Shown: one piece after another, positions 31,905 through 57,050 of the stretch
How positions within the stretch are numbered: position 1 is the first letter of the stretch
Layout: the number at the start of each line of letters is the position of its first letter
Assembly: GCA_045648305.1 (NCBI GenBank)
Contig: JAZRNR010000163.1
Span: forward strand, 45,929-109,928
Length of the DNA stretch: 64,000 nucleotides
Source of the DNA: Acutalibacteraceae bacterium
GTDB lineage: Bacteria > Bacillota > Clostridia > Oscillospirales > Acutalibacteraceae
Direction of reading: 5' to 3'
The notes under the pieces: model-generated
Database searches by the model: none
What the model was told of the DNA's origin: nothing
The model's input: the letters and a program-made list of their open reading frames with translations, nothing else
Program-made: the position numbers and the translations under genes

Positions 31905-34900
31905 ATGAAAACAAAAATGTGGATAAGAATCATATCAACAATTCTTTCAATTCTTTTTGTGCTTGAAATTCTGCCAATTTCTGTAATGGCGGAAGAGTAC
32001 AACAAATACAAAGATTTATCAAACGCAGAACTGTTTACTCAGCAGGAAGAAAAATCGCCTATCGTTTCCGAAGTGGTTTCTGAACGCGATGCCTTCAAGA
32101 AGGTTTTTGAACGCGAAGACGGTTCGTTTACAGCAATCATTTCATCCGGTCCCGTTCACTATTTCGAAGACGGTGAATGGCTTGAAATTGACAATACACT
32201 TACAGAAACAAACGGTACAATCACAAACGAAAGTAATGGCTTTTCCGTTGACTTGCCGTCAGAGATAACATCAGACAAAAATGTAACCATAGCAACTGAA
32301 AAGGCAGAACTTTCATTTACTATGGAAAACATATCATCATCTGTAGCAGAGATCGCAGAGATTGAACCTGTTAATGATGAAACATCGCTTATGATGGGTC
32401 TTGACAACATCGCTTCATCTGTTGAATACACATCTGTTATGACAAATACTGATCTTGTGTATGATATCGGTGCAGACTCTGTTAAGGAAAGCATAATTCT
32501 TTCATCTTGCCCATCTCAGGTAACTGACTATTCATATACAATTAATACAAATGGTGCTACTCTCTATCTTAATGAAGATAACAGCATCAATGTTGTTAAG
32601 AACGGACAGATTGAGTTTGTTATCGAAGCTCCGTATATGTTTGATTCAAACGGTATTTCGACAGATTATATTGATGTATCACTTGAAAACATCGGTGAAT
32701 CTACATATACCCTTACATACTCTCCTGATTATGATTGGCTTTCATCAGACGAGAGAGTATACCCCGTAACAATCGACCCGACAACTACAGTTTATTCTGC
32801 GACTGCTATTTCGGAGGCATTTATCGGAACGGTTGATTCAACTGCAACTGATCTCGATAAGTTTCACTATTTAAAGAATGCAAATAGACTTTATTTTAAA
32901 TATTCAGATTCTGTTTCAAATGGTTTTGGTAAGAATGCAGTTATCACAAATGCTGAGTTTTCTCTTTACTGCGAGGCTTTGACGGACGATGATACTCTTG
33001 CTGTTTTTCCGATTTCTTCAGAGTGGACCGAAGAAACTGTAACTCCTGTCACAGAAACTGCAGACTTGCTTGATTATAATATCATCAAATATGGTGAATC
33101 AGCAAAACGTTATGTTTGGGATATTACTGAAATAGCGGCAAAATGGCAGATGAATCAGTTTGATAACAACGGTATATCTATAAGACAGCTTAGCGATACA
33201 ATCAACACAAAAATTTACCGTTCTACAACTGCTAATCTTACTTCGCGCAGACCTTGGTTCCAGATTGACTATGTAACAATCGATAATATGGCAGAATATG
33301 ATACTGAAACTGTCGATATGGGTAGAGCGGGTACATTCTATCTCAATAAATATACCGGCACATATTATGTCAAAAGATCAGACCTTAGTCTCAACGGTAA
33401 TGTTTCTCCTGTAGAAATGAGCTTTACATATGATCCGTGGAGTGCAAGTATTACACGAGGTTCATCCTACGGTGCTTATTGGATTACAGATTACTACAAC
33501 AAAATATTCTATAGTCAGACTGTAACAGAGAATGATATTACAAGACATCAGTATACATTCAGAGACAATGGAGGTATCAAAACACGTTTTGTCGAGGTTG
33601 TATCAACAGATGAAGATTACAGTACAGTGCCTGAAGGATTCACTGAATCATACCTCACAGATTATACAAGATACAAGGCGGTTTCAGGTGATTTAAACAA
33701 ATGTCTTTGGGTTCCTAAGTCGGATACAACTTACAAAGATTTCGCTAATATGATTATCGAGGACTCTACTTATCGTTACACGATTGACAGCATCAATAGA
33801 GTAACATCACGAGTACATAAGACAAGTGGTGCGGTAATAGCTATCGAACACAGAACAGCATCATCTGATGCAATTCGTTCTGTAACTGATGGTGTCGGAA
33901 GAAAATATGATCTTCCATCAGCAAAAGATACTAATGGCAAGACAATTACAGATAAGTTGGTAATGTACAATTCTTCAGGTAATGTGATTAAAGTTTCAAC
34001 TCTTACAGGGGATGTCGCAATCGGAGTAGATTATGGTTATACCGCAATTGATGATGCAACATCGCATCTTACAACAGTAACCTACGCTGACGGCGAAGCA
34101 ATTACTTACGAATACAACACAGACGGACTTATGACATCTGTCACTAATGTTGACGGTTCTCGTCTTGAACTTCGTTACAGCGGTGACAGAGTAATCGGCT
34201 ATACAAAGTATGCTTATTATGTATCAGCCGGCAATTCACAGAACTGCTTTGAAAGTCAGCTTGATATTAGCTTTGACGGACCGAAACAAAGAACATTTAC
34301 ATATTATGAATATGATAAAACCACTCCGTCAATTGTTACTAAGCAGCGTTATGATTCAACACTGCAGGCAACTGATTATATAAACAGTGACGGAGAATAC
34401 AGTTATACAAAAACAATAACAACCGATACAACTGAAATTGCAAGTTATTCAACAAATGACGATGAGGCAACCAACCTCATTGCAAATGGTAATTTTGAAA
34501 GTGGTAAAACAGGTTGGATAAGTGTACCGGATAATGCAAGTATCGGATTGCCTGTGCTTAGTGAAACGTTTGCTTTTGATGGAGTTTCCGGTAAAATGAT
34601 TTCGCTTAACTCAGGTTTAAGAAAGAATCTTCGTGTAGGTCAGACTATTTCAAGTTTACCCGCAAATGAAGATACAGTTTACACTTTGAGTGCTTGGGCA
34701 AAAACGTATCGTTCTGTGGCGACAAGCTATGTTAATGACCACGCACATCTCGATAAAACTTTTGCGATTTGTGTAACAGATAACGAAGGCAATGTTCTTG
34801 CACAGTATGATTTTGACACAACGACCGATGAATGGCAGTTCGGTGCTGTTTCATTCGAAACAGATGTCACTCTTGAAAATATCAAAGTAATTCTTATGGC

Positions 34901-37814
34901 AGACGGTCAAATGGCATATACAAGATTTGATGATGTCAGGTTGATTGAAAGTTCCACAAGTAGTGTGGAAATATTGTTAGATGAGGTAGAAACTTTTGAT
35001 ACTCAATCGACAGAAATCGATGAAGCTTCACATTGTTCTTGTAGTGATTGCTCAGATGGTACTTGCAATTGCCACGAGTGCTTAAACGAAGAATGTGATT
35101 GCATAGGCGAATGCACGCATCAGACCTGTGTCGGATGTTCAAAGTCTAAAGACATAGAAAAGAATGAACATGGTAGCATAACCAGTCAAAGCACAACGGT
35201 TGGAGATAAATCTTCCACAACCTCAATAACATACACCGAGAACGGCAACTATGTTTCCGATGGAATTGACCCTAACGGAACAACTACAACCTTGAATTAT
35301 AACGAAGACAACGGTTATCTAGATTCAGTTGTCGATGGAAATGGTAATCAGATTTCATACAAGTATACAGCTTATGGTGCTTTAGCTCAGGTTTCACAGG
35401 TTGTATCAGGTTTATCAAACGGTTCGTTTGTAAGTAAGGAATATACTTATCTTCACGATAGATTAACCGCAGTTACGCATAATGGTTTTTCATACACCTT
35501 TGACTATGACGGTTATGGAAATAAAACATCTGTAAAAGTTGAAAATCAAGCACTTGTAAACTATTCTTATAATACTGATCGTTCACTTAACACGATCGAG
35601 TATTCTAACGGTCAAAAAATACATTATAACTATACTGATTACGGTTTTATTACGGGTATATGGTTTGATGATGACACCAACTGTAAGTACACCTACAATT
35701 ACGACAGTGCAGGCAGATTGGTTTCAAGTATTGATAACATCAACTCTACAATCACCAATTATGCTGAAGACAACAGCTTTAGCGTATATGAATATTCAAA
35801 TGGAACAACTGGCGAATTGATTTATTCAACGTCATTTACTGATGAAGGTTCCACGATAAATAATGTTTATGGTAACTCCTACGAGCATTACGAAGCTGAC
35901 ACAGATTATAATCACGATACAGGGACTTCTGTTGTCACGAACAGAATAGAAAACGGTGATGAAGTTTTATTTGATGTCATTGAAACAACAGACTATTTTG
36001 ACAGAGAAATAAGTCAAAAAATTAAGATTTCTGATAATATGTACTATAACTATGAGTACAGTTACGGTGATACCCCTGACACAGCAAAAACACAATTGGA
36101 TTCTTGTGTTTATTCTGCTTTGGTCCCATCGGGTACATTAAGCAGTGTTACTTGGTCTTGGGATTACGATAATAACGGTAATCTTACTCACGTTATGGAG
36201 TATAACCCCGAAACGCAGGTTGAACGTGAAATTTACACTTATTTGTATGATGAAGCGGGACAACTTATCAGGTGTAACGATTTTTGTGAAGAAGCTACTT
36301 ATACATACACCTATGATATCGGTGGCAATCTCGTAACAAAGAAAATTTTTGCATACACTACAGGTGAACTGGGAGAGCCTTTGGATACAATTAATTATAC
36401 TTACGATTCCATATGGAAAGATCAGTTGACAAGTTTTGATGGTAAGACTATAATTTATGATAGTGTTGGCAACCCTTTATCTTATGATGGTTGGTCATTC
36501 ACTTGGAGTGCAGGCAGACAGTTATCTTCTGTTTCAAATGCAGATAAATCTTTGGCATTCAAATATAACGACAGAGGTTTAAGAACTGAAAAAACGTTAA
36601 CTGTAAACGGAATAACAACTGTTATTGAGTATGTCTGGAACGAAGATAAACTCATAAGTCAGAGTGACGGCATAAATCAACTGTATTTTATTTACGACAG
36701 CGAGGATCGCCCGATAGCCTTTGTACTTAACGGAAATCAAACTTTCTACTATATGAAAAGTCCGTTAGGCGATGTTGTTGCAATCTATGACAAAAACGGT
36801 GTTTATGCCGGTGGATATCAGTATGATTCTTGGGGTAATTGTACTTCTAATATGTCTGATGATTATCCTAACTTGATTTATCTCAATCCGTTTAGATATC
36901 GTGGTTATGTTTATGATTCGGAAACAAAACTGTATTATCTCCAGTCACGTTATTATAATCCAGAATGGGGCAGGTTTATCAATGCGGATGATGTGGATGA
37001 AGTTATTGGTGTTATTCCAAATAGTATATCAATAATTGATAATATATGTACTGTTAATCTTTTTGCATATGCATTAAATAATTCTGTAATGTGTGTTGAT
37101 TATACAGGTAAAGCATCTACAACTAAAATGAATGCTGCGGAAAAAACTGTAATGCAGGTGTTTTTTATTGTAATAGCATACAACTTCACCACAATAAAAG
37201 GGTGTTCATATAATGGTTTGATTACTACAAAAGGAGCAATTAGTATCAATTTTCTTTCAACAACCTTTTATTATAAGGGGCAAGTTGGTTATGATAAAGT
37301 TTATATTAGAGCGTCAAACGAAAGCGATAATTTTTATTCTGTAATTGATTCATACAAAAAGGCGTTTGGTGAAGAAGTATATAGCCTTTTAGCAGATGTT
37401 GCATTAGAAAAATTTAAACAAGAGTATTATTATCCATCCAAAAAGAATAATAATGAAAAAATTTTCCCTAATAGAGATTTTTTGTTTTCAAAAAAATGTT
37501 TAACCAAAGAAATTAAATTGCATTTTGAAGGATATATGTGGTCAATTAACAAAAAGGGATATTATTGTCCATTGGTATTTACTCTTTATAAAATTGTAAA
37601 AGTAAAAACGAAAGCTAATATTGGAGAAGCTTGTAGAGCTGCTGATATATTAGAAAGAGGGGTTCACGACGAAATATTGGAATCCATTGGATTTGATTAT
37701 TACAATGGAATAAACAATAAATATCAAAAAACCAAAGAGGATCCGTATTTCAATACGGTTACGAAAAAACGAAGTCGTACTGTATATGAAGATTGGAAAT
37801 ATTTATTATTTTAG
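31905..37814 (+). CDS. secreted WapA-like RHS/YD-repeat polymorphic toxin 1
   Basis: Signal peptide MKTKMWIRIISTILSILFVLEILPISVMA. Many YD repeats and a CBM-like NGNFESGKTGW segment. The core ends at RYRGYVYDSETKLYYLQSRYYNPEWGRFINAD, followed by an unrelated AT-rich tail of about 270 aa. Confidence 0.9.
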   Translation: MKTKMWIRIISTILSILFVLEILPISVMAEEYNKYKDLSNAELFTQQEEKSPIVSEVVSERDAFKKVFEREDGSFTAIISSGPVHYFEDGEWLEIDNTLTETNGTITNESNGFSVDLPSEITSDKNVTIATEKAELSFTMENISSSVAEIAEIEPVNDETSLMMGLDNIASSVEYTSVMTNTDLVYDIGADSVKESIILSSCPSQVTDYSYTINTNGATLYLNEDNSINVVKNGQIEFVIEAPYMFDSNGISTDYIDVSLENIGESTYTLTYSPDYDWLSSDERVYPVTIDPTTTVYSATAISEAFIGTVDSTATDLDKFHYLKNANRLYFKYSDSVSNGFGKNAVITNAEFSLYCEALTDDDTLAVFPISSEWTEETVTPVTETADLLDYNIIKYGESAKRYVWDITEIAAKWQMNQFDNNGISIRQLSDTINTKIYRSTTANLTSRRPWFQIDYVTIDNMAEYDTETVDMGRAGTFYLNKYTGTYYVKRSDLSLNGNVSPVEMSFTYDPWSASITRGSSYGAYWITDYYNKIFYSQTVTENDITRHQYTFRDNGGIKTRFVEVVSTDEDYSTVPEGFTESYLTDYTRYKAVSGDLNKCLWVPKSDTTYKDFANMIIEDSTYRYTIDSINRVTSRVHKTSGAVIAIEHRTASSDAIRSVTDGVGRKYDLPSAKDTNGKTITDKLVMYNSSGNVIKVSTLTGDVAIGVDYGYTAIDDATSHLTTVTYADGEAITYEYNTDGLMTSVTNVDGSRLELRYSGDRVIGYTKYAYYVSAGNSQNCFESQLDISFDGPKQRTFTYYEYDKTTPSIVTKQRYDSTLQATDYINSDGEYSYTKTITTDTTEIASYSTNDDEATNLIANGNFESGKTGWISVPDNASIGLPVLSETFAFDGVSGKMISLNSGLRKNLRVGQTISSLPANEDTVYTLSAWAKTYRSVATSYVNDHAHLDKTFAICVTDNEGNVLAQYDFDTTTDEWQFGAVSFETDVTLENIKVILMADGQMAYTRFDDVRLIESSTSSVEILLDEVETFDTQSTEIDEASHCSCSDCSDGTCNCHECLNEECDCIGECTHQTCVGCSKSKDIEKNEHGSITSQSTTVGDKSSTTSITYTENGNYVSDGIDPNGTTTTLNYNEDNGYLDSVVDGNGNQISYKYTAYGALAQVSQVVSGLSNGSFVSKEYTYLHDRLTAVTHNGFSYTFDYDGYGNKTSVKVENQALVNYSYNTDRSLNTIEYSNGQKIHYNYTDYGFITGIWFDDDTNCKYTYNYDSAGRLVSSIDNINSTITNYAEDNSFSVYEYSNGTTGELIYSTSFTDEGSTINNVYGNSYEHYEADTDYNHDTGTSVVTNRIENGDEVLFDVIETTDYFDREISQKIKISDNMYYNYEYSYGDTPDTAKTQLDSCVYSALVPSGTLSSVTWSWDYDNNGNLTHVMEYNPETQVEREIYTYLYDEAGQLIRCNDFCEEATYTYTYDIGGNLVTKKIFAYTTGELGEPLDTINYTYDSIWKDQLTSFDGKTIIYDSVGNPLSYDGWSFTWSAGRQLSSVSNADKSLAFKYNDRGLRTEKTLTVNGITTVIEYVWNEDKLISQSDGINQLYFIYDSEDRPIAFVLNGNQTFYYMKSPLGDVVAIYDKNGVYAGGYQYDSWGNCTSNMSDDYPNLIYLNPFRYRGYVYDSETKLYYLQSRYYNPEWGRFINADDVDEVIGVIPNSISIIDNICTVNLFAYALNNSVMCVDYTGKASTTKMNAAEKTVMQVFFIVIAYNFTTIKGCSYNGLITTKGAISINFLSTTFYYKGQVGYDKVYIRASNESDNFYSVIDSYKKAFGEEVYSLLADVALEKFKQEYYYPSKKNNNEKIFPNRDFLFSKKCLTKEIKLHFEGYMWSINKKGYYCPLVFTLYKIVKVKTKANIGEACRAADILERGVHDEILESIGFDYYNGINNKYQKTKEDPYFNTVTKKRSRTVYEDWKYLLF

Positions 37815-37826
37815 GGTGAAAATCAT

Positions 37827-38576
37827 ATGAAAAAATTTTTGAGAATTTTGGTTATTGTGTTAACAAGTGTGATTGTACTAATTTTAGGAATAATAAATTT
37901 TCCTATTGGAATAAATACATCGGATTCTATTATTAAACCCATAGTAAAGGAAGTAGAAAATAAAAAAATGCTTTGCTATGCTTACGGTGAGAATGTTTTC
38001 GCTGAAGATTATTATAGTTTAAAGTTACCTTACGCGCATGTAAACCTTGTTTACAAAAATGAAATTATTGTGAAAGAAGTTTATACATCAAGATTCAAAA
38101 AACTTTTTCCGACAATTTTAAAAGAAAAGTTTTTGATTATAGGTAATGAAAAAATAGTTGAACATACAGGCTTTTTATATGACCCGGTGTATTATAATAT
38201 TGGCATTAATGTACCGGAAATAGTTGCTGAAAACATAAAAGAAATTTCTTTGTGTGAGGGAACTTATCATTATTATTGGTATAAGCCAACGGATGATGTT
38301 GAAACAATACATGATGTTGTCCAATCATTATATTCAGAAGAAGTCAATAATGAAGTAAAGTACAAAGAGTGCGATGTTAAGGTTGTCGAATCTCATTCTG
38401 ATCTTGAATACATAGAAAACTTTGTAGAAAATATAAAAAATTCTACAAAAATTCTTAATCAGGACGGGTATTATACTATGGATTTTGAAGACCAAAAAGT
38501 AATGTATCGTATAGAGTTCAAAGACGAGGAATTCCCTTTTTATTTAATTGTTGCTATAGTAGGGGGGATGTATTAA
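37827..38576 (+). CDS. candidate immunity protein for RHS toxin 1 (N-terminal TM anchor)
   Basis: Starts 12 nt after the toxin stop. It has the same AT-rich composition as the toxin tail. Confidence 0.55.
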   Translation: MKKFLRILVIVLTSVIVLILGIINFPIGINTSDSIIKPIVKEVENKKMLCYAYGENVFAEDYYSLKLPYAHVNLVYKNEIIVKEVYTSRFKKLFPTILKEKFLIIGNEKIVEHTGFLYDPVYYNIGINVPEIVAENIKEISLCEGTYHYYWYKPTDDVETIHDVVQSLYSEEVNNEVKYKECDVKVVESHSDLEYIENFVENIKNSTKILNQDGYYTMDFEDQKVMYRIEFKDEEFPFYLIVAIVGGMY

Positions 38577-38700
38577 GACAGGATTAGCGCAGGGGACGAT
38601 TAGCGTGAAAACCTAAAAGTGTAGACCCTGCAAAAAGACAATACTAAACCAAGGCTGTTGCAAAAATGTGACAGCCTTAGGTGCAGAAAAATATTTAAAA

Positions 38701-38743
38701 CACAAAGGGACGGTTCTTGTAGCACAGGGGACGGTTCTCTGTG
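38701..38743 (+). repeat. tandem copies of a 21-22-nt motif (CACAAAGGGACGGTTCTTGTAG, CACAGGGGACGGTTCTCTGTG)
   Basis: The second copy is identical to 41756-41776. A looser copy, GCAGGGGACGATTAGCGTG, lies at about 38589-38607. Confidence 0.7.
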
Positions 38744-38817
38744 TTAGTTAAAAATCAAAATCCCATGGGGTAACCACTCCCCATGGGTAAACCAAAATCA
38801 AATATCTTTCAACGCGG

Positions 38818-38855
38818 AAGCACCCATTAATTTGGGTGCTTTCTGCTTTGTGTTT
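38818..38855 (+). terminator. hairpin with U-rich tail (copy A of the duplicated junction)
   Basis: AAGCACCCA / TGGGTGCTT stem followed by CTGCTTTGTGTTT. Homologous to 41813-41849. Confidence 0.55.
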
Positions 38856-38883
38856 ACAAGCTTGCAAAACTTGACGAAAATCT

Positions 38884-38914
38884 AACGTTTTTGTCGAAAA
38901 ATGAGACTTTTATG
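38884..38914 (+). promoter_or_regulatory. AACGTTTTTG half-site with a degenerate second repeat
   Basis: AACGTTTTTG at 38884-38893. The segment 21 nt downstream (AGACTTTTAT) matches only weakly. About 245 nt upstream of 39129. Confidence 0.25.
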
Positions 38915-39128
38915 CATAGTAACTTGACTTAGTTCTATATAGAAGTAAATTAATAGTAAAAATGTGTTTCTATTAACAATGCCCAAAATGATTTCAAGGT
39001 GGGGTGTGACGATTCTATAATATTATATTTCTTGATATAAACATATAATTAATTTATCCGTTTGATATATTTAATTATATAAATTGTGCAGATAATATTT
39101 TATATAATAATTTAAAGGTGGGAGTCAA

Positions 39129-39665
39129 ATGTCAATAAAGTATACCGGAGAACTATTATTAATGCCTTGTCCGACAGTTTTAGTTACATCCAAAAAAGAT
39201 AATATTGAAAACATTGTAACGGTTTCATGGGCAGGAATTGCATCTTCTCATCCTGAATATATTACCATTTCTATAAATCCTAAACGTTATTCATACGATA
39301 TTATAGCTAAAACCAAAAAATTTTGCATTAACATTCCTGAAGTCGACTTAATAAATGAAATTGATTTTTGTGGGAACCACTCTGGTAGAGATATAGATAA
39401 ATTCTCGGTTTGCCATTTTACTAAGAAGTATATCAATGATTATGTGTTAATTGAACAGTGTAAATTGCATATTCTTTGTGAGGTTGAAAAAATTGTAAAA
39501 TTGGGAAGTCATCACTTGTTTATTGCAAAAGTAATAGAAAAATATCTTAATGTTGACAATACAAATAACATTCATGAATACTTAAAACCAGTTGCTTATT
39601 ATAGGCCTTATTATTATAAGCTTGAAGAGAATAATATAGGTATATATGGCTTTACAAAAAAATAA
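39129..39665 (+). CDS. flavin reductase-like (FMN-binding split-barrel) protein
   Basis: Pattern LMPCPTVLVTSKKDNIENIVTVSWAGIASSHPEYITISINPKRYSYDII, then FCGNHSGRDIDKF. Confidence 0.7.
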   Translation: MSIKYTGELLLMPCPTVLVTSKKDNIENIVTVSWAGIASSHPEYITISINPKRYSYDIIAKTKKFCINIPEVDLINEIDFCGNHSGRDIDKFSVCHFTKKYINDYVLIEQCKLHILCEVEKIVKLGSHHLFIAKVIEKYLNVDNTNNIHEYLKPVAYYRPYYYKLEENNIGIYGFTKK

Positions 39666-39727
39666 TATGATGTTTATCGTAGTTTAATTTCTAAATATGA
39701 TTATCAAAACATTCAGAAGGTGAAAGT

Positions 39728-40606
39728 ATGATATGTGGTAAGGATTTAATTATCAAGTTTTTAGATGAAACAAATACAGCTAAAGAAAGTATAACAATCA
39801 CAACATCTGAAGAAGATGCTTCTCCTTTTGATAGAAATGTGCAAGTAGGTCGAGATTCTATTGACTTAAGAATAGCAAGTTCTGGCTATAAAATAAAATG
39901 TAATTATGATTTCATTAATACATTAGATTCAAAGGTTGATGAGTATTTTTATGATATCTCACTTGAGAAAGACGGATATATTATTCAGCCTGGGGAAACA
40001 ATAATTGTCAACACAGTGGAAAGAATAAAACTAACAGGAAATATAACTGGAGAATTAACGGGACGAACTCGTTTTGCTAGAATGGGTCTATCCGTTTGTA
40101 GTGCTACAAAATTCCAAAGTTATTCTGACGCTATTATTGTTTTGCAAATATGCAATCATAATAAAGTTCCTTTAAAGATATTTCCATATCAAAAATTAGT
40201 TCAATTGGTTATTCACCAAGTAGATGGAATCCCAAATGAAAAACGAGGCAATTACCATAACGAAATAAAACTTATGAAACCGATAATTGGCGATGAAGAA
40301 TTAACAGGTTTGTCTCCTGAAAGAAAAAAGTCTATAAGTCGTCAAATGCCACAAAAATCCTCTTTTGTTACAGAAGATGGTAACATTGATAATAAAAAGA
40401 GATTGAAGCAAAACAACAAAATTATGAATATATTTTCAAAAATATTTAGTTCCATATCCGCCATTCTTGGATTAATAATAGGTATATTATGCTCTTTACC
40501 TACTTTTAATACTACGCCAATAATAGTAATGTCAATTTCATCAGTATTATTGATAGTTATGTCGGTTGTGTTAGACACAATTAAAGATAACAATTTTATT
40601 GATTAA
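39728..40606 (+). CDS. dCTP deaminase (Dcd/dUTPase)-fold protein with C-terminal two-TM anchor; catalytic Glu position is Gln
   Basis: YIIQPGETIIVNTVERIKLTGNITGELTGRTRFARMGLSV aligns with E. coli Dcd [40 protein letters not shown]. The VLEF motif reads VLQI. C-terminal hydrophobic segments are ISAILGLIIGILCSL and IIVMSISSVLLIVMSVVL. Confidence 0.65.
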   Translation: MICGKDLIIKFLDETNTAKESITITTSEEDASPFDRNVQVGRDSIDLRIASSGYKIKCNYDFINTLDSKVDEYFYDISLEKDGYIIQPGETIIVNTVERIKLTGNITGELTGRTRFARMGLSVCSATKFQSYSDAIIVLQICNHNKVPLKIFPYQKLVQLVIHQVDGIPNEKRGNYHNEIKLMKPIIGDEELTGLSPERKKSISRQMPQKSSFVTEDGNIDNKKRLKQNNKIMNIFSKIFSSISAILGLIIGILCSLPTFNTTPIIVMSISSVLLIVMSVVLDTIKDNNFID

Positions 40607-40617
40607 AGGTGATTACA

Positions 40618-41529
40618 ATGATAAAAACATTGAGGATACAACTTACAGAAGAATGCAATTTAAATTGTGTATATTGTTGCCACGAAGGAACTAAAAATGA
40701 TTTTAGCATTTTAAAAAATAGAAATTTGGCTTCTTTTATACGTGCTACATATGACGTTCTTGACATAAAAAGAGTTAAATTTACTGGTGGAGAACCGCTA
40801 GAATATGATGAAAATATCTGCGATATAATCAAAAACATAAATCGTGCTGACATACAATATTCAATAGTAACCAATGCAACAAACTACGATACTTTTATAA
40901 ATTTAGTAGAAAACACCCCCAACATTGAGGTAACCATCTCACTTCCAGTACCTCCCGACGAAACATATCTGAAAGCCTTTAAAACTATAACAGGAGCAAT
41001 TAATGAAAAAAAAGCGTTTTTGTCTGTTGTGGATTGTGTCGAGTATATGGTAGAGACCAAAAAATTTTTTAAAATAAATTATGTCTTATGTAAAGACATG
41101 AACACAACAAATACGCAAATAAAAAGCATGATTAAATATGCACAAAATCATCCTACGATACAATTAAGATTTTTGGAGACAGCAGTAAACAGTACTAATA
41201 ATAAAAACGGAAGAATGTCGAAGTTCGTGTTTACACAAAATGAGTTTGAAAAAGTTCTTATAGATTTAGGGTACGAAGAATCAGTCGCAAACAAATTATC
41301 TGACAAAAGATCGTCGTGTTTATATAATTTGGATGGTTGCATAATTAAATTTATCAAATTTTTTTGTAATAATAATTGTTATAATTGTCCAGAAGATAAA
41401 ACTTCTTTATGGTTAACTTCCACCGGTTATATAAAAAGATGTTCATACAGAAGTAGAGCAATACCTGTTGATAATTGGCAATATAATAAAATTACCAAAC
41501 AATTAGAAGAAAGTATATTTGAGACTTAA
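40618..41529 (+). CDS. radical SAM enzyme, MoaA-like
   Basis: LRIQLTEECNLNCVYCCHEG carries the CX3CX2C motif, followed by FTGGEPL. The C-terminal Cys cluster FCNNNCYNC...LWLTSTGYIKRC resembles the MoaA auxiliary-cluster region. Confidence 0.75.
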   Translation: MIKTLRIQLTEECNLNCVYCCHEGTKNDFSILKNRNLASFIRATYDVLDIKRVKFTGGEPLEYDENICDIIKNINRADIQYSIVTNATNYDTFINLVENTPNIEVTISLPVPPDETYLKAFKTITGAINEKKAFLSVVDCVEYMVETKKFFKINYVLCKDMNTTNTQIKSMIKYAQNHPTIQLRFLETAVNSTNNKNGRMSKFVFTQNEFEKVLIDLGYEESVANKLSDKRSSCLYNLDGCIIKFIKFFCNNNCYNCPEDKTSLWLTSTGYIKRCSYRSRAIPVDNWQYNKITKQLEESIFET

Positions 41530-41755
41530 ATGTTTAATCAATATATCATTAATATTGGATGCGTTTGTTACTGTGACCGATTTTTATTGTACATATCATA
41601 CTAATAAATCATCGCAAATTGCGGTGCCTTCTTGTTATTGGTGCATTTATGCATGAAAATTAACCCTCTGTTCTACTGGTGGCAAATAACGAGTAGTGCT
41701 ACAATAAAAACGGCGAGTTTTATGCAAGCAGAATGTTGTTAGTAGCAAATATAAA

Positions 41756-41776
41756 CACAGGGGACGGTTCTCTGTG
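41756..41776 (+). repeat. CACAGGGGACGGTTCTCTGTG motif, copy B
   Basis: Exact 21-mer match to 38723-38743. Confidence 0.7.
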
Positions 41777-41812
41777 CTCGATTGAAAATGAAAATCAAAT
41801 ATTATTCAAAAA

Positions 41813-41849
41813 GGAAGCACTCATTAATTTGGGTGCTTCCTTTGTATTT
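41813..41849 (+). terminator. hairpin with U-rich tail (copy B)
   Basis: GGAAGCAC / GTGCTTCC stem followed by TTTGTATTT. Confidence 0.55.
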
Positions 41850-41870
41850 ACGCCTTCGATAACGAAATTA

Positions 41871-41901
41871 AACGTTTTTGTATAAAATCGATACGTTTTT
41901 A
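41871..41901 (+). promoter_or_regulatory. direct repeat AACGTTTTTG / TACGTTTTTA with 21-bp period (LytTR-type site candidate)
   Basis: Copies at 41871-41880 and 41892-41901, about 205 nt upstream of the RHS2 start. Confidence 0.4.
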
Positions 41902-42076
41902 CTTTGTACAAATTTTTGGGTCGTTTATATGTTAATATCAAAACAGGCTAATTCTTTCGCTAATATTGATAAATCTACATGTGTTACATAGTGCAACTCG
42001 ATGTTTTTGAAAATGGTGTTAGCTTTTAAAAGCTATAAATGCTTTTTATATTTATAAAAGAAAGCGAGGAAACAAT

Positions 42077-45000
42077 ATGCAAAAATTCATCAAAATCTTA
42101 TCTATCGTTTTAGTTGTTGTTTTTTGTGCGCAAATAATTGCACCCGGAGCAACAGCTATCACAGCAACTCCTTTTGTAGGAAACAATGTTGCAAAAAGTG
42201 CATCAAAAGGAATTACATTACCTTCTCTAAACGATGATTTAGGGAAGATAGAAGCTGATTCCATTGTGCAAAACATTGACAGCTCGGACAATGAAATCAT
42301 AACTCCGATAATGGGCGAAATTACGGAATTACGAACCGAGAATGCAAAACACTATCGCCACGAAGACGGCACCTATACGGCTGCTGTCTATCCTGAGCCT
42401 ATTCATTATATGGATTCAAGTGGTGCGTGGAAGGATATCGACAACACTCTCACTCTTAAAAGTGTTGCCGGAAAAGCTACTTATACTCCTGCCACAGCAG
42501 CTCTTGATATCCGAATTCCTCAGGATTTTTCAAACAACCAAATGTTAACCATCGGTAAAGACGGCTATACAGTTGGTATGAGAATTAAGTCATCAGATAA
42601 TTTGGAAACAATGAGCCGAGAATCTGCAACTGCATCCACAACAATCAATTCTGCTAAAGCTGTGATTAACAACAACTTTGAAAGTTTACAGGCAGTTAAC
42701 ACATCGCCCGTTATAGATGCGACTGCTTCTAATAACTTGAAAGTTGAAGCAGAAAACAAACAGTTTATGAAACTTGAAAAGAAGGTTTCTGCTGTTAATT
42801 ATAACGGTGTTTTAGACGGTGCAAACTTACAGTATGTTATCACACCAAGCAGAGTTAAAGAAAACATCATTGTTACTAAAACACAGGATTCATATGTTTA
42901 TCAGTTTGAACTCGCTTTAGACGGTCTTACTCCTGTTGCTCAGGAGAACGGTTCAATAAATCTCTACGAAAACATAGACGATGAAGAACCTCTGTTTGTC
43001 ATTGAAGCTCCTTATATGTATGATGCAACAGAGGAAACCAGTTTCGATGTTGCAATGAGTTTAAATGGTAATACCCTTACTGTCACAGCTGATGCTGAGT
43101 GGATTAATGACGAAAATCGAGAGTTCCCTGTTGTTATCGACCCCACATTTTCTGCAAACACTACAACTTTTTATGATGCAACTGCAAACCAAAACACTCC
43201 CGATATGAATTTTCCGTCCTTTACTACATTATATGCAGGTAACGGAACACTTAATCTCAGACGAACATACATTAAATTCACACTTCCTCAACTCCCGGAA
43301 GGTAGTGTGGTTACAGAATCAAAATTAACTTTAATCCAACACGATGTAACTTTGGGAAACAGTGACCGAAAACTTATGGCTTTCGATTTAACGCAAAAGG
43401 GTTCTTGGACAGAAGGTTCTATTACTTGGAACAATCAGCCTGTTTCGAACAGCCCTAACGCTGCTGTTTACGATAATGCAGTTAAAACCCTAGACTATGC
43501 ATCTTTCCAAACAACAAATGTTGACGGACAGTCATACTCTTTTTATATCACAAAAGCCGTTAAGAATTGGTACGAAGGAAGTGCTAATAACGGCATTATG
43601 ATAACAAGTGATGATGAAAGTGCAAACAGTCAGGCAATTTTATATTCAAGCGAACACGAAGACACAACTCTTCATCCATCAGTTACTATACGATATAACA
43701 ACAATATCGGACTTGAAGATTATTGGTCTTATGAAACAGTTGATATGGGACGTGCGGGCGCGCTGTATGCTAATCCGTATAACGGTAGTGTTACGTATGT
43801 TCATAGCGATTTGAATATGACAGGCAACCGTCTTCCTATCAATATTTCTCATGTTTTCAACAACAACACTTCCGATATATATAGTTCCGTATATAGAGGA
43901 ATGCTCGTAGGAAAAAAGTTTCACCTGAGTATTCAGGAAGTATTAGTTCAAGAGAATCCCAGAAAATATAAGCATTACGATGGAGACGGTACTCTTCATT
44001 ACTACATTTTAAAAAGTAACGATAAAATTGAACACGAATATGACCCTACCAAAACACTTACATTAAACGACTCCGAATATATAATAAGTGATGCACAAGG
44101 CAACAAGAAGTATTTCAATTCAGCGGGTCAGCTCTATAAACTTGTTGACAACAACGGCAATACACAGACGTTTACTTTTAATGGCAATTTAATCACAAAG
44201 GTAACGGATCCGGTTGGCAGATCAGCAATTTTATCATATAATTCTGACGGACAGCTTATCTCCATCACTGATCCCGCGGGTCGCGTAACCACTTATACTT
44301 ATAGAGGTTTGACTGAACCTGCGCCTCTTATAAAAATAACTTATCCTAACAGCGATACAACTAGTCTTCAGTATGCAACAGATAACCTTGCATGCATTAG
44401 ATCTAATAACCGTACGAATTGTATAATAACTTATCACAATTCAACTTACAGAGGATATCGAGTTTCAACTATAAGACAGTATGACAAAACACCACAGGTA
44501 GTTAACTTATCAACATTCAGATATGTCGAAAATAATGAATCTGGTATTGCATCGGAAAATACGGTTGTAAGTCGTTATTTTGACGCAGATAAAACCAATT
44601 TTGATGGCTCGAACACCTATTTGTTTGATACTTACGGACGTGTAACCAGTATAACAAACGAAAACCATCAAACTCGATACGCTGTATACGGAACGTCCGC
44701 AAACTATGCTACTTTTAATAAAATTCAGGACTCTTCAGAGCTTTTAACTATTTCAACAAACACTATTAATAACCATGGATTTGAAAATGGTAATGATGGT
44801 TGGTCTGCACTACAAACAGCAAGCGGAAATTGGGGCGTTGTTGAAGATACCGCATCCAGTTCTTTGGGACGCAAGTATATGCAACTCGAACTGACAGGTA
44901 ACTCAGGAGCGTTTGAAGTTGGACAAGACTTCACCGCAACAGCAGGAGAGACATATACTGTTTCTGTAGATATCAACATTCCAAATGCACTTGAACTGAA

Positions 45001-48000
45001 TAACAACAATGGTGTTGCATTCGGCTTGGTATATTGTATCAATGGCACATGGTACAACTCTTCGTCAAGATGGCTTGGTTCGACAAGCGGATGGGAGCGT
45101 TTCAGTCATACTGTGACATTGCCAAGCGGCAATATAACCAACTGCCATGTTTTCCTTGAACTTGTCAACGCTGAAGGCATTGTTCGCTTTGATAATGTTC
45201 AGGTTGAAAAAAGCGGCGGTTCTCGTAGCTATAATCTTGTTGAAAATAGTGATTTTTCAACAGGTACGGGCAGTGATGTGTATGGTTGGACAAGTTCTGA
45301 TATGCAGACCGGTGATGGTGTAAAATACGACGTAGGTGCAGGGCGTAATTGTTATATGATGATGGGTTCTGTTTCCAAAGCTAAATCTATATGCCAAAAA
45401 GTATATGTAAATGCAAACGCCGGAGATTCCCTTATAATAGGTGGTAAGGTAGCTGCATATGTAACAGATGGTACTAGCAATTCCAGAAAATTTGAAATAC
45501 GTGCTGCTTTATATAATGCTAATGGAACATGTATAAAGATTGTAACAGTTCCTTTTGATAAAAAAATAAATCAGGAGAGACAAGTAAAGGCTGCCTATGT
45601 ACCGGTCGAACAAGATTGTGAATACATAAACTTCTATTTTAATTATCATTATCAGGCTGATGCTTTCACCATTGATAATGCCTTTGTTTATGTAGACAAC
45701 TATGGTGAGCACTACTCCTACGATGAAACCAGCGGTTTGACAACAGCAGTTTATAACGACGAAGGAACTAAAACTGAATACATACACGGTGATAATACTG
45801 ATGTTGATGAGGTTACTCAGACTGTAAGCGGTGTTGAACAAACTGTTGCGACATATACCTATGATAACAATCATAATGTTTTAACCGCAACTAATAATGT
45901 CGGCAGTAAAATTGAATATAAATATAATACAACCGGTCAGGTAACTAAACAAACTACTATATCTGTAGATGAAAATGGCCGTGAAACAAGATCCTCTGAA
46001 ACCTTTTTGTATGGTCAGAATGGTAACTATTTATATGAACACGTTGACGCTAATGGTATTCGTACACGGTATGCTTATGATAATACTACCGCTGCAAATC
46101 AAATAAAGAAAGGTTTGCTGACAAGCGTAACAGATGCTTACGATTGTGTTACAACCTATACCTATGACCCAGACACAGATGAATTGCTTTCGGTAAGCGG
46201 CTCTGCAGACTCAACTGTTCCTGAACTTACATCGACAACAACTTTTTCCTACGAGGATTATTTACCGAAAACAATATCTCGAAACGGAACAACATATTCG
46301 TATGAATATGACTCTCAGAATCGTGTTACTTCAAGCAAAGTCGGCACCCAAACATTGGTAACCAATTCATATGACAACAGGCAAAGATTATCAGGTGTAG
46401 AATATGGAAATAACGACATATACACTCCGATTTATGACAATCGTGATCGCTTGGTAGGTGATTCCTGGAATAATACGCAAATTTCACAGTATTATTATAA
46501 CGACAATGATAGATTGTCAAAGGTTGTGGATAACGTTACAAATACATCTTACCAGTACGATTATGCTTTCTATGATTTGCCTCTCAGAGTTACCGGAAGC
46601 GATGGAACAGTGACAGCATATGATTATGATATGTCCGGTAATCTTGCTAGATTGACTTTTAGTGATGATAATGCAAATATATATTCAGGTAAGTACTATA
46701 CCAACGAAAAAGGTATGCCTGAAGATATTGTTATCGACACTCTCAATAACACATTGATTCACTATAACTATGACGATTTAGGCAGAGTTGAAAGTTATTC
46801 CTACGGTCCGGTTATAAGAACAATCACGTACAGGGATACTGTCGGAAGCACAAGAACAACTGCCAGAAATCAGATTAAAGAAATTGTTGACGAAACCAAA
46901 GACGGTGAAATTCTTCAGTCATATTCATTTGAATACGAAAGTACCGGTTATTTATATGAAATTACTGAAACTGTAGATAATCAAACAGTCAATTACTACT
47001 ATGATGAATTAGGCAGACTTGTAGATTGTACAGAATCTGCAGATAATTTCCATACGTTTACTTATGATGTAGACGGCAATATCACTTCGATCGGTTTCGG
47101 TTACGACCTGATTCACACATTCACTTACGGTAATGCGAATTGGAAAGACCAGTTAACTGCTTTCGATGGTAAGCCAATTACATACGATGATATCGGTAAC
47201 CCGCTTACTTACGACGGATATACTTATACTTGGGAACGAGGCACTAAGCTTGCCGGTATAACAGGAAACGGTAAAAACATCAGTTATGTATATGACTCGC
47301 AGGGCAATCGAGTTCAGAAAACAGTTAACGGAGTAACAACCAATTATCTTTATTCGGGTAATTTGCTTATGCGTCAGACTGACGGTACAAATACCATTGA
47401 TTTCCAGTATGATGTAAGCGGTGATGTGGTTGGGTTTATTTACAACGGAACACCGTATTACTATTTAAGAACATTGCTGAATGACGTTTCCGGTATTGTT
47501 GACGGAGAAGGCAATGTCGTTGCCGAATACAAATATGGCGCATACGGTAACATCATTTATGCTACAGGTGATTTAGCCGCAATTAATCCTATTCGTTACA
47601 GAGGCTATTATTATGATACCGAAACGAGTTGGTATTATCTTCAGTCAAGATATTACAACCCTGAATGGTGCAGATTTATCAGTCCTGACTGTCTCTTTAT
47701 CGCAGGTGATGCAATTAACGGAAGTAACATGTATGCTTATTGTAATAATAATCCAGTTAAATACATCGACACGTCCGGTGCAGCTTCTGAAACAAATAAG
47801 ATTGATCTTACACCCGTGGCAGATGGTATACGAATAATTAGCGGCAAACTATCTCAAACATTATCTGAACACGCAAGGGACCTTTTTGCCGGTACCACCG
47901 ACAGAATCCTGAACGAGTTAAAAAGTGTCTGTGAGTATAAGCTTCCTGGCCAAAAGGAAGGATTTGCTTACTCTTATCCGATGATATTTATTGGAACACC

Positions 48001-48823
48001 AATTTTATGTATCGGTTCGCTCACAGTATTACCTCTTCTTGATTTAATAATAAATCCTGACCAAAAATTCCCTGAAAGTCCTGAATTCAAATTGCCTACA
48101 GGAATTAGACACTTCACACCATGGAGTATGGAATTCTTAACAGGATATGCGACATATTTTCTTGGCTTTGAAAGTGACGGTGGAGGAAAAACCTATACAA
48201 CAAATCCGGATAATTTTATGTGGCAAAGTATGGTAGGTTATAATTGGTTTTATGATTACTTTTTCAGCTTGGGTGGACCAATAACAAAAATAGTTCTTCC
48301 CTTTGATGCTCCCGCGACAAGCCTGTTTCCTGATGCTTCTTATGCAGTATGGTGTTGGAAAGCGGACTATTGGAACTTAGGTGCTGGCGCTGAAATAGGA
48401 ATATATTGGCAACCAATAAAAGCTCTTGCTGAGCGTGGATTCTACCGTATTGACCAAGAAAACCTTCTTGTTGATGTCAATATGCAGGTTACTTATGATC
48501 ATTCAAAAGACGAGCTTTCTTCATACAATCACATAGAGGTTTTGCATGGTAACGGTGAACCTCATTCATCTCTCAAGCAAACAAGTTGGTGGATTACTAA
48601 TTTTACACCGCATATACAATTTGTGGATTTAGAAGCATTGAATGTATGTCAGGCTGTTAATTTTGCTGAAAGTGGCATTCATAGTAATTTGTATGAGGCT
48701 TTTTATGAAAAATATAGTAACGACGATACACATCCTGAATTATCCTGGTCTGTTTCCGAACCTCAGTGGGAATACTTAAATTTTGATAGTGAATATCCTT
48801 ATGAATTCTACATTCAGTACTAA
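42077..48823 (+). CDS. secreted WapA-like RHS/YD-repeat polymorphic toxin 2
   Basis: Signal peptide MQKFIKILSIVLVVVFCAQIIAPGATA. DNRLRE-like N-domain (LNLRRTYIKFTLPQLPEGSVV) and a CBM-like NHGFENGNDGW segment. The core ends at RYRGYYYDTETSWYYLQSRYYNPEWCRFISPD and NMYAYCNNNPVKYIDTSG. A distinct C-terminal domain of about 345 aa follows. Confidence 0.9.
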   Translation: MQKFIKILSIVLVVVFCAQIIAPGATAITATPFVGNNVAKSASKGITLPSLNDDLGKIEADSIVQNIDSSDNEIITPIMGEITELRTENAKHYRHEDGTYTAAVYPEPIHYMDSSGAWKDIDNTLTLKSVAGKATYTPATAALDIRIPQDFSNNQMLTIGKDGYTVGMRIKSSDNLETMSRESATASTTINSAKAVINNNFESLQAVNTSPVIDATASNNLKVEAENKQFMKLEKKVSAVNYNGVLDGANLQYVITPSRVKENIIVTKTQDSYVYQFELALDGLTPVAQENGSINLYENIDDEEPLFVIEAPYMYDATEETSFDVAMSLNGNTLTVTADAEWINDENREFPVVIDPTFSANTTTFYDATANQNTPDMNFPSFTTLYAGNGTLNLRRTYIKFTLPQLPEGSVVTESKLTLIQHDVTLGNSDRKLMAFDLTQKGSWTEGSITWNNQPVSNSPNAAVYDNAVKTLDYASFQTTNVDGQSYSFYITKAVKNWYEGSANNGIMITSDDESANSQAILYSSEHEDTTLHPSVTIRYNNNIGLEDYWSYETVDMGRAGALYANPYNGSVTYVHSDLNMTGNRLPINISHVFNNNTSDIYSSVYRGMLVGKKFHLSIQEVLVQENPRKYKHYDGDGTLHYYILKSNDKIEHEYDPTKTLTLNDSEYIISDAQGNKKYFNSAGQLYKLVDNNGNTQTFTFNGNLITKVTDPVGRSAILSYNSDGQLISITDPAGRVTTYTYRGLTEPAPLIKITYPNSDTTSLQYATDNLACIRSNNRTNCIITYHNSTYRGYRVSTIRQYDKTPQVVNLSTFRYVENNESGIASENTVVSRYFDADKTNFDGSNTYLFDTYGRVTSITNENHQTRYAVYGTSANYATFNKIQDSSELLTISTNTINNHGFENGNDGWSALQTASGNWGVVEDTASSSLGRKYMQLELTGNSGAFEVGQDFTATAGETYTVSVDINIPNALELNNNNGVAFGLVYCINGTWYNSSSRWLGSTSGWERFSHTVTLPSGNITNCHVFLELVNAEGIVRFDNVQVEKSGGSRSYNLVENSDFSTGTGSDVYGWTSSDMQTGDGVKYDVGAGRNCYMMMGSVSKAKSICQKVYVNANAGDSLIIGGKVAAYVTDGTSNSRKFEIRAALYNANGTCIKIVTVPFDKKINQERQVKAAYVPVEQDCEYINFYFNYHYQADAFTIDNAFVYVDNYGEHYSYDETSGLTTAVYNDEGTKTEYIHGDNTDVDEVTQTVSGVEQTVATYTYDNNHNVLTATNNVGSKIEYKYNTTGQVTKQTTISVDENGRETRSSETFLYGQNGNYLYEHVDANGIRTRYAYDNTTAANQIKKGLLTSVTDAYDCVTTYTYDPDTDELLSVSGSADSTVPELTSTTTFSYEDYLPKTISRNGTTYSYEYDSQNRVTSSKVGTQTLVTNSYDNRQRLSGVEYGNNDIYTPIYDNRDRLVGDSWNNTQISQYYYNDNDRLSKVVDNVTNTSYQYDYAFYDLPLRVTGSDGTVTAYDYDMSGNLARLTFSDDNANIYSGKYYTNEKGMPEDIVIDTLNNTLIHYNYDDLGRVESYSYGPVIRTITYRDTVGSTRTTARNQIKEIVDETKDGEILQSYSFEYESTGYLYEITETVDNQTVNYYYDELGRLVDCTESADNFHTFTYDVDGNITSIGFGYDLIHTFTYGNANWKDQLTAFDGKPITYDDIGNPLTYDGYTYTWERGTKLAGITGNGKNISYVYDSQGNRVQKTVNGVTTNYLYSGNLLMRQTDGTNTIDFQYDVSGDVVGFIYNGTPYYYLRTLLNDVSGIVDGEGNVVAEYKYGAYGNIIYATGDLAAINPIRYRGYYYDTETSWYYLQSRYYNPEWCRFISPDCLFIAGDAINGSNMYAYCNNNPVKYIDTSGAASETNKIDLTPVADGIRIISGKLSQTLSEHARDLFAGTTDRILNELKSVCEYKLPGQKEGFAYSYPMIFIGTPILCIGSLTVLPLLDLIINPDQKFPESPEFKLPTGIRHFTPWSMEFLTGYATYFLGFESDGGGKTYTTNPDNFMWQSMVGYNWFYDYFFSLGGPITKIVLPFDAPATSLFPDASYAVWCWKADYWNLGAGAEIGIYWQPIKALAERGFYRIDQENLLVDVNMQVTYDHSKDELSSYNHIEVLHGNGEPHSSLKQTSWWITNFTPHIQFVDLEALNVCQAVNFAESGIHSNLYEAFYEKYSNDDTHPELSWSVSEPQWEYLNFDSEYPYEFYIQY

Positions 48824-48976
48824 TTCACATTGTGATTTTAAAACTATCATCATAACCAACTATAAGCCAACGGTTTTAATTAGAAACAAACCTTAACTGG
48901 TTTAAATTATATGTTCATACACAGCCCTATTTCAATAGGGGGTGTATGAACGTCAATTAATTAGGAGGTTTTTATT

Positions 48977-54168: not shown

Positions 54169-54275
54169 TAGAGTGTATAGGTGGATTAAAATAAATAATG
54201 GGATTATATATTAGTATTTTAACATTACAAATTTCTATATTAGGTTTTATAGCACAACTAACCGGCTGAACAATA

Positions 54276-54668: not shown

Positions 54669-54676
54669 AATGTAAA

Positions 54677-56979: not shown

Positions 56980-56986
56980 TTGATCG

Positions 56987-57042: not shown

Positions 57043-57050
57043 ATTAAAAT

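Follow-up and report, generated by a model that had tools for sequence, protein, structure and literature searches.

We analyzed a 64,000-nucleotide stretch of DNA from an Acutalibacteraceae bacterium (contig JAZRNR010000163.1, positions 45,929 to 109,928), referred to here as the window. It encodes a cassette of about 2.4 kb with three genes on the same strand, A, B and C (39129-41529). Gene A codes for a flavoredoxin-like protein, gene B for a membrane protein with the fold of dCTP deaminase (Dcd) and dUTPase in which the catalytic Glu is replaced by Gln, and gene C for a radical S-adenosylmethionine (SAM) enzyme resembling MoaA. The cassette is a co-inherited mobile unit, and B is its hub. 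We tentatively propose, as a reading that may well be correct but that we would not yet call probable, that the cassette is a mobile conflict module built around B, likely acting in abortive infection against phages or other mobile genetic elements. B would then be a nucleotide-gated membrane effector with a ligand set by its partner enzymes.

The three genes and the partners of B

The open reading frame (ORF) listing of the window places gene A at 39129-39665 (+ strand, 178 aa), gene B at 39728-40606 (+ strand, 292 aa) and gene C at 40618-41529 (+ strand, 303 aa). A was assigned as a flavoredoxin-like split-barrel protein predicted to bind flavin mononucleotide (FMN) from its PF01613 profile match and solved relatives. 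For B, profile, alignment and an AlphaFold2 (AF2) model gave a Dcd/dUTPase-fold protein with the Glu to Gln replacement and a C-terminal two-helix membrane hairpin, and for C profile, alignment and fold gave a MoaA-like radical SAM enzyme with two predicted Fe-S clusters. An alternative GTG start at 40609 would lengthen C to 306 aa. The ATG at 40618 is favored because a Shine-Dalgarno sequence, AAAGGTGA, lies 7 nt ahead of it and because a database protein identical to C (P0037) is 303 aa long. With this start the intergenic spacing is 62 nt between A and B and 11 nt between B and C, which bears out the layout of three co-oriented genes given in the initial annotation. Good ribosome-binding sites precede both A and B.

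A C-family gene lies directly 3' of the B gene in ten out of ten independent loci examined (loci carry the prefix L below, and database proteins the prefix P). The order A-B-C is found in at least five further independent contexts (L001, L009, L010, L011/12 and L017) and B-C in five more (L004, L013, L015, L016 and L033), showing that the genes do co-occur in other genomes. The B proteins of these loci range from close to distant relatives of the B in the window. They are 74% identical to it in L011/12, 69% in L017 (Faecousia), 68% in L009 and L010, 56% in L004/5 and 51% in L001, which is a metagenome-assembled genome (MAG) from the Bacilli. The distant ones are 46% identical in L015, 38% in L013 (a Clostridium beijerinckii MAG), 37% in L016 and 35% in L033 (a Mu-like prophage). 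Across the 45 locus pairs formed by ten loci, the pairwise identities of B and of C are correlated with r = 0.95. DNA similarity between loci is restricted to 39128-41520 and the flanks differ. Because B and C diverge together and the DNA similarity ends at the edges of the three genes, A-B-C is a co-inherited mobile unit.

A second B clade (31-38% identical) is found in Blautia, Roseburia, Mobilisporobacter, Ruminococcaceae and other Lachnospiraceae, and has no radical SAM gene. In place of C, a thymidylate-kinase-like P-loop kinase (K; PF02223) is encoded directly upstream of B. Gene A is often directly downstream. The order K-B-A is seen in L006-8, L023-25 and L038/39, and K-B in L020-22, L036 and L041. 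Blautia schinkii MSK.6.26 is one of the K-B-A hosts. B-A pairs are present in L027/28 and L029/30 and, among metagenomes, in L034, L037, L040, L042 and L043, one of which is GC-rich. Reading frames of K, B and A overlap by 14-20 nt in L008, L023 and L027. The trio had initially been presented as a unit. As such it recurs, but it is not invariant, with A, C or the Tmk-like kinase as alternative partners of the hub B. A is the commonest of these partners and accompanies B also at loci lacking C.

We considered whether a radical SAM gene in the kinase loci might lie just off the contig end and rejected this, as the downstream DNA of L007, L008, L023, L025 and L038 shows none. About 1 kb downstream of K-B-A in L008, past a transposase fragment, there is a SPASM/anSME-type radical SAM gene (3809-4482; motif CNCDCPYC). 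It is unrelated to C and probably belongs to a separate peptide-maturase cluster.

The Dcd-like domain with Gln at the catalytic position also occurs in larger proteins. It is joined to a guanylate kinase and transmembrane (TM) segments in P0173, P0175, P0176, P0228 and P0234. In P0212 (631 aa; ENA, on a 62-kb contig) a radical-SAM-like module precedes the Gln-type domain and TM segments. Its N-terminal CX3CX2C cysteines are all replaced, so this module looks inactive and may be a binding domain. P0183 and P0198 are fusions of the Gln-type domain with a PNP_UDP_1 nucleosidase. Their nucleosidase matches two PADLOC models, the 'Effector PN-superfamily' (1e-25) of the cyclic-oligonucleotide-based antiphage signaling system (CBASS) and PDC-M60C (1e-34). 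By analogy, a Gln-type domain ahead of a CBASS-type nucleosidase is in the position of a ligand sensor. In L021, the kinase and B form one 453-aa ORF (9392-10753), which is either a natural fusion or the product of a frameshift or assembly artefact.

The Dcd-fold protein, the radical SAM enzyme and the flavoprotein

The Dcd-like domain of B spans residues 28-164 (39809-40219, + strand). It matches PF22769 (DCD) with an E-value of 2e-20 and scores 66.8 bits with TIGR02274, under the cut-off of 92.8. The AF2 model of B has a pLDDT of 87, and its best Foldseek matches are the dCTP deaminases of M. tuberculosis, B. halodurans and E. coli (E 5e-12; target-normalised TM-scores of 0.76-0.84). Complexes of dUTPase with Stl (7pwx and 8p8o) are also among the matches. 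In the alignment to E. coli Dcd, Gln140 of B (codon 40145-40147) is at the position of Glu138, VLEF having become VLQI. Arg113, Thr114 and Arg118 of B correspond to Arg110, Ser111 and Arg115 of E. coli Dcd, and the catalytic Glu is the sole replacement among the four positions scored (Arg110, Ser111, Arg115 and Glu138). The IDPGW motif, including its Asp, is not kept, KFQSYS being aligned to it. At the same position (IDxDY/IDPGW) the motif III Asp of dUTPases is absent, and B-family members have KFQSYS or KFSSGI with no conserved Asp. The alignment agrees with the initial description of B as a Dcd-like protein without its catalytic Glu and DPGW-type motif.

The membrane hairpin of B consists of helices at residues 222-256 and 262-288 (40391-40591, + strand) in the AF2 secondary structure and in hydropathy, so the two TM helices first proposed for its C-terminus were found again. 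Every B-family member scanned by hydropathy has C-terminal hydrophobic segments, from one to three and overlapping. The PADLOC model RTasSLATT matched the B of the window at 6.5e-5, but only three of 23 family members. SLATT_4/SLATT_5 of NCBIfam likewise matched three of the 23, with E-values of about 0.006. All matches of B to SLATT or other two-TM effector models are far below the cut-offs, and TM composition could account for them.

To place B among its relatives, we searched 1.84 billion representatives exhaustively with a profile, which returned 411 proteins at E<=1e-10. The residue at the catalytic position was counted with hmmalign in 184 sequences, comprising the top 148 of the 411 and 36 close homologues. 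Gln is present in 141, Glu in 26 and His in six. C-terminal TM segments are found in 111 of the 141 Gln-type relatives. Most Glu-type relatives (22 out of 26) have no TM segments, and they are mostly short soluble proteins, that is, ordinary Dcd. Clustered at 50% identity, the proteins with the Glu to Gln replacement make up at least about 140 clusters, the majority with membrane helices. The close B family comprises 36 clusters in a 5.8-billion-protein index, all about 290 aa long. With the Glu to Gln replacement and C-terminal membrane helices throughout the family, B is not a conventional soluble deaminase. One apparent relative, P0170 (823 aa), was discarded as a spurious low-complexity match. 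It is a 12-fold tandem repeat matched only via a short GRDSIDI-like motif.

Dcd variants with Glu replaced by Gln or Ala have been used to crystallise the enzyme with bound nucleotide or pyrophosphate (3gf0, 1xs4 and 2j4q are among the Foldseek matches of B). As the general base is lost and the residues clamping phosphate and sugar are kept, B is most likely a nucleotide-binding protein that leaves its ligand unconverted.

In gene C, the radical SAM motif CX3CX2C (C16, C20 and C23 in the 306-aa numbering; 40654-40677, + strand) is invariant in an alignment that includes true MoaA. C also has a GGEPL motif. A C-terminal Cys cluster (C253, C257, C260 and C278) was located in the alignment together with a conserved DKTSLWLTSTG block (41365-41442, + strand). 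C257, C260 and C278 align with the three cysteines of MoaA, and the conserved C253 and a 4-residue insert are extra. The cluster therefore reads CX3CX2C...C, with four conserved cysteines versus the three in MoaA that leave an open iron site. Full ligation of this auxiliary cluster is one possibility, and a different mode of binding by the motif is another. The best-conserved DNA across distant loci is 41343-41446, 81-86% identical to L013 and L016 and 73% to L015.

MoaA is the top solved relative of C by sequence (147 bits versus 72 for the next) and by fold (Foldseek E 2e-13, TM-score 0.70). By fold it is followed by SPASM/twitch enzymes such as SuiB (about 1e-9) and then by viperins (about 4e-9). 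These matches and the motif alignment support the first assignment of C as MoaA-like in both of its Cys regions. The basic residues of MoaA kept in C are the equivalents of R17 (= R9), K69/R71, K163 and R192, which we take to be the GTP triphosphate clamp. Arg266 and Arg268 of MoaA are replaced in C by Ser and Trp, inside the conserved TSLWLT block. Arg17, Arg266 and Arg268 are the residues mutated together in PDB 2FB2.

C scores under the equivalog cut-offs of all three MoaA models (TIGR02666, 107.4 against 284; TIGR02668, 105.9 against 325; NF001199, 105.8 against 231) and under that of the viperin model (NF038283, 48.8 against 180). Its match to the PADLOC model for prokaryotic viperins (pVip; 1e-15) is limited to the generic radical SAM core. 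The C family has about 38 members, after which scores drop abruptly to true MoaA at no more than 31% identity. The precomputed Pfam assignments for genes of related loci include neither moaB/C/D/E nor moeA, a survey that covered the window at its immediate RHS neighbors only. Judged on scores far below the cut-offs of both kinds of model, C is a MoaA-like enzyme that is neither MoaA nor a viperin. The initial annotation had considered a role in molybdopterin synthesis unlikely, and the sub-threshold scores (107 bits versus 231-325), the replaced Arg266 and Arg268 and the lack of recorded molybdenum cofactor (Moco) genes in related loci all speak for C not being a housekeeping MoaA. Since the triphosphate clamp is kept and the guanine-positioning arginines are not, the substrate of C is probably either a nucleoside triphosphate (NTP) that is not GTP or GTP itself, converted along another route.

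A matches PF01613 with 91.4 bits (cut-off 27; 8e-26). Among solved structures, A comes closest to the flavoredoxins 3bnk (1.6e-14) and 2d5m (3.4e-12), with the NxxxxSW and CGxxSGxxxDKF segments aligned. A is accordingly predicted to be flavoredoxin-like and to bind FMN. With 77 clusters, the subfamily of A is small, and it goes together with B. Proteins at least 49% identical to A adjoin B (56% in L027/28, 49% in L029/30), and a relative at 37% does not. A flavin reductase as the source of electrons, as first suggested, is reasonable for C in the window. It cannot be the whole role of A, because A is tightly coupled to B in loci without a radical SAM gene.

The conjugative element and other genomic contexts

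The window is part of an integrative and conjugative element (ICE) with the cassette as its cargo. It encodes a MobA/VirD2 relaxase, a VirD4-type (T4) coupling protein, a VirB4-like ATPase, an M23 hydrolase and a tyrosine integrase. RHS/YD-repeat genes flank the cassette on both sides (31905-38576, 1969 aa; 42077-49714, 2248 aa). Small ORFs without a Pfam match trail each of them, one of 249 aa after the first and two of 245 and 259 aa after the second, and are presumably immunity genes. A 2969-aa ORF (3485-12394) combines MutS domain I, an Eco57I-like methylase segment and a SNF2/ResIII helicase, and looks like a giant ICE-borne protein of the anti-restriction or defense type.

The GC content of the cassette is 29.0%, compared to 36.0% for the window and 39-40% for the conjugation genes, and falls within the lowest 2.6% of 2.4-kb segments of the window. 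The initial annotation had put the contrast at about 30% to about 45%. The direction held, but with the backbone at 39-40% the difference had been overstated. Low GC content is also not unique to the cassette, as other AT-rich patches (25-35% GC) exist at 12000-20000 and 54000-60000. ORFs of 442 and 494 aa without a Pfam match lie in the first patch (13151-15966). The C-terminal part of the first RHS gene and the ORF downstream of it are as AT-rich as the cassette (28% GC).

An imperfect direct repeat brackets the cassette. The upstream copy (38723-38844) contains CACAGGGGACGGTTCTCTGTG and a terminator-like hairpin (38816-38843), and the downstream copy (41756-41841) is 84% identical at a spacing of about 3.0 kb. 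The palindromic CACAGGGGACGGTTCTCTGTG and the hairpin GGAAGCACYCATTAATTTGGGTGCTT each occur exactly twice in the window. The repeat could be a duplicated RHS leader or terminator, or a recombination scar from insertion of the cassette. Another terminator-like hairpin, found by pattern scan only, lies 81 nt past the stop codon of C (41610-41626, + strand). An Rfam search of 38400-42200, covering the leader and flanks, gave no credible match to a riboswitch or other RNA.

Mobile elements also carry or adjoin related loci. The B-C pair of L033 is in the accessory region of a Mu-like prophage, beside an IS200 transposase. Other neighbors include a large serine recombinase (L038), TnpV (L027) and transposases of the ISL3, DDE and DUF772 types (L001, L006-8, L029). 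Just upstream of B-C in L013 are a resolvase and a gene for a 599-aa TIR/ThsB_TIR protein (3771-5570). Among 149 neighboring ORFs, PADLOC models matched PDC-S02 (two ORFs), PDC-S08 (three), mad3 (three), mad8 (three) and the PD-(D/E)xK protein YhcG (two). The three PDC-S08 matches, at 1.3e-133, equal those of PF06189 in count and E-value, so they are probably the 5'-nucleotidases found behind kinase-B. There, three Lachnospiraceae MAGs share a conserved synteny of DUF1653, the PF06189 5'-nucleotidase and an SfsA fusion (L021 10955-14292; L022 11361-14887; L026 1640-5019). The arrangement may mean that the genes are linked in function or that they share a site of insertion.

B loci are rare. 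Ten, an under-count, were confirmed when 185,579 GTDB species genomes were scanned from pattern seeds. Ten loci, mostly short, came from a metagenome scan with a narrower B alignment, and IMG/VR held one, in the Mu-like prophage. Scans of viral contigs with P0175 and P0129 gave no match. In PLSDB and INPHARED there were only distant Dcd-like matches, and the B family is essentially absent from both.

Proposed function and alternatives

In the conflict module that we propose, a B trimer would clamp a nucleoside-triphosphate-like ligand and, with Gln in place of Glu, would not deaminate it. The C-terminal arm of Dcd and dUTPase subunits serves as a lid on the nucleotide of a neighboring subunit. 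The corresponding lid arm of B is predicted to run straight into the membrane hairpin, so that ligand occupancy could be transmitted to the membrane by coupling to a six-helix assembly of the trimer. This assembly would damage or gate the membrane. The ligand would be set by the partner, which is C in the window, turning an NTP into a modified nucleotide, and the thymidylate-kinase-like enzyme in the sister clade. As both are nucleotide-directed, C and K would plausibly make or remove the ligand of B. A would give reducing equivalents to the Fe-S clusters of C and probably a redox input to B as well. A role in defense or conflict fits the mobile-element and defense-gene neighborhoods of the loci.

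A bolder version of this proposal is on balance doubtful. In it, the cassette would be a new type of immune module in which the radical SAM enzyme, or a deoxynucleoside monophosphate kinase, makes or consumes a nucleotide signal. The dead Dcd/dUTPase trimer would read that signal and open a pore formed by its membrane hairpins or activate a fused nucleosidase, and the flavoredoxin would tie the switch to the redox state.

Several points weigh against a nucleotide-gated effector with a defensive role. The Gln of B might support a different chemistry rather than none. Its hairpin is poorly conserved, is not demonstrably of the SLATT type and could be a mere anchor. The fourth conserved Cys might complete the ligation of the auxiliary cluster of C, in contrast to MoaA, where this cluster binds substrate. 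A is present in many loci without C (K-B-A and B-A), and its role is not explained by C alone. L009, L010 and L020-22 sit among ordinary chromosomal genes. No known defense model in PADLOC 2.0 matches A or the Dcd domain of B.

The search of known systems agreed with the initial impression that no described system combines the three parts. No model in PADLOC 2.0, NCBIfam 20 or Pfam names an A-B-C system, and a full-text search of the published literature found no description of the cassette. PADLOC gave only generic radical SAM and pVip matches for C and P-loop-level matches for the kinase K. The nearest published hint is a dUTPase domain, which may or may not be of the same family as B, in an unvalidated predicted defense system (PMC13092281). 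By analogy, the cassette would be akin in its logic to CBASS, to the pyrimidine cyclase system for antiphage resistance (Pycsar) and to viperins, but with none of the components that define those families, and built from families without a characterised immune role.

Each of the known systems shares some features with the cassette. Like MoaA (PDB 1TV7/1TV8/2FB3), C has the fold, the N-terminal CX3CX2C, the three-Cys C-terminal cluster and the basic residues. It differs in the Ser and Trp at Arg266 and Arg268, the 4-residue insert and the fourth Cys, and in having B always adjacent and no moa genes recorded nearby. B shares with Dcd, Dcd-Dut and trimeric dUTPases the fold, the equivalents of Arg110, Ser111 and Arg115 and part of the C-terminal lid motif. 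Gln at Glu138, the loss of IDPGW, the added two-TM hairpin and the sub-cut-off TIGR02274 score set it apart. The phage dUTPases of staphylococci are nucleotide-dependent switches acting on the Stl repressor. They offer a precedent for a dUTPase-fold trimer as a nucleotide-controlled switch working through its C-terminal arm, although those enzymes are active, soluble and phage-borne, whereas B is predicted to be inactive, is membrane-bound and is carried on cellular mobile elements.

Like CBASS, Pycsar and SLATT-type effectors, B has a putative ligand-binding domain followed by a TM hairpin, an enzyme gene adjoins it, and the Gln-type domain is found fused to a PN-superfamily-type domain. Those systems have nothing that corresponds to the sensor fold of B, the radical SAM and Tmk-like enzymes or the flavoprotein. 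A CD-NTase or pyrimidine cyclase was found neither by PADLOC for A, B, C and the upstream ORF nor among the 25 most frequent of the 83 families in the 149 neighboring ORFs. Defensive dCTP deaminases of the AvcD type have an N-terminal kinase domain and a zinc-dependent cytidine-deaminase fold, and deplete dCTP. The pairing of a nucleotide kinase with a 'dCTP deaminase' makes the kinase-B pairs and fusions superficially alike. Set against that description, B has an unrelated, dUTPase-like fold, lacks the catalytic Glu and is membrane-bound, and the PADLOC models for dCTP deaminases do not match B.

Prokaryotic viperins are radical SAM enzymes that make chain terminators, the 3'-deoxy-3',4'-didehydronucleoside triphosphates (ddhNTPs). 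C belongs to the same nucleotide-directed radical SAM branch, and pVips too are carried on mobile elements and islands. A viperin-style system is nonetheless unlikely. In it, C would make a chain-terminating or otherwise toxic nucleotide analogue from an NTP and A would reduce C. B, tethered to the membrane and binding nucleotides, would not be an effector but would sequester substrate or product as a regulator, a scaffold or a means of self-protection. The pVip match in PADLOC (1e-15), the 48.8 bits with the NCBIfam viperin model and the viperin structures found with C (E about 4e-9) are consistent with this, and the nucleotide kinase that stands in for C in sister loci loosely recalls the PADLOC category 'viperins associated with kinases'. 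The constant element is B and not C, however, as a radical SAM gene is missing from the K-B, B-A and K-B-A loci, and the kinase replaces the radical SAM enzyme rather than standing alongside it. C is also nearer to MoaA, has a second Fe-S cluster that viperins lack, is paired with a membrane Dcd-like protein and falls far short of the viperin cut-off of 180. We give somewhat less credit again to a guard or addiction system, in which B would be a latent membrane toxin. Its closed state would depend on a ligand or partner that A, C or the kinase has to go on providing at the expense of NAD(P)H, SAM or ATP. B would open once this ligand falls, as when a phage shuts down the metabolism of the host or degrades SAM, or when the mobile element is lost. 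All three alternative partners are enzymes that would report on central cofactors, the frame overlaps of K, B and A (14-20 nt) suggest a fixed stoichiometry, and the cassette rides on mobile elements. This reading is inference only. It leaves the recruitment of nucleotide-directed enzymes and the nucleosidase fusion unexplained, and no antitoxin-like small protein or RNA was found, including no Rfam match in 38400-42200.

The enzymes could instead serve metabolism outside any conflict, which we consider less likely still. Anaerobic gut Firmicutes would then use the cassette as a small accessory pathway to produce or recover, at the membrane, a modified nucleotide or a cofactor, and B would be an enzyme of altered chemistry such as a pyrophosphatase. 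All parts have metabolic folds, L009, L010 and L020-22 lie among housekeeping genes, and in three Lachnospiraceae MAGs kinase-B is syntenic with DUF1653, a 5'-nucleotidase and SfsA. That 5'-nucleotidase itself matches the PADLOC defense candidate PDC-S08, though, and the genes are patchy, rare and AT-skewed, are carried by an ICE, a prophage and transposons, and have different flanks nearly everywhere. B has also lost both the catalytic Glu and the Asp of IDPGW/IDSDY, and its Gln-type domain is found fused to a CBASS-type effector. Very improbable is a host MoaA, that is, a GTP 3',8-cyclase for Moco synthesis with incidental neighbors. MoaA is the best match of C by profile, solved-structure sequence and fold, but C reaches 107 bits where 231-325 are required, has Ser and Trp at Arg266 and Arg268, is at most 31% identical to true MoaA and is strictly linked to B, with no Moco gene recorded in related loci. 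Moco synthesis as the role of C was rejected on the low scores, the lost arginines and the linkage to B.

If the immune module with a nucleotide signal were to prove true, B would be the first immune sensor with a dUTPase fold and C would make the first second messenger produced by a radical SAM enzyme. Should the cassette be defensive, it would add the dead Dcd/dUTPase as a new sensor fold, a second, MoaA-like radical SAM branch beside the viperins and a flavoprotein input. The reaction of C could yield a novel nucleotide analogue that is of interest for pharmacology, like the ddhNTPs of viperins. Even if the cassette is not defensive, the linkages of B with C and of B with A bound the function space of three unannotated protein families and provide a clonable unit of 2.4 kb.

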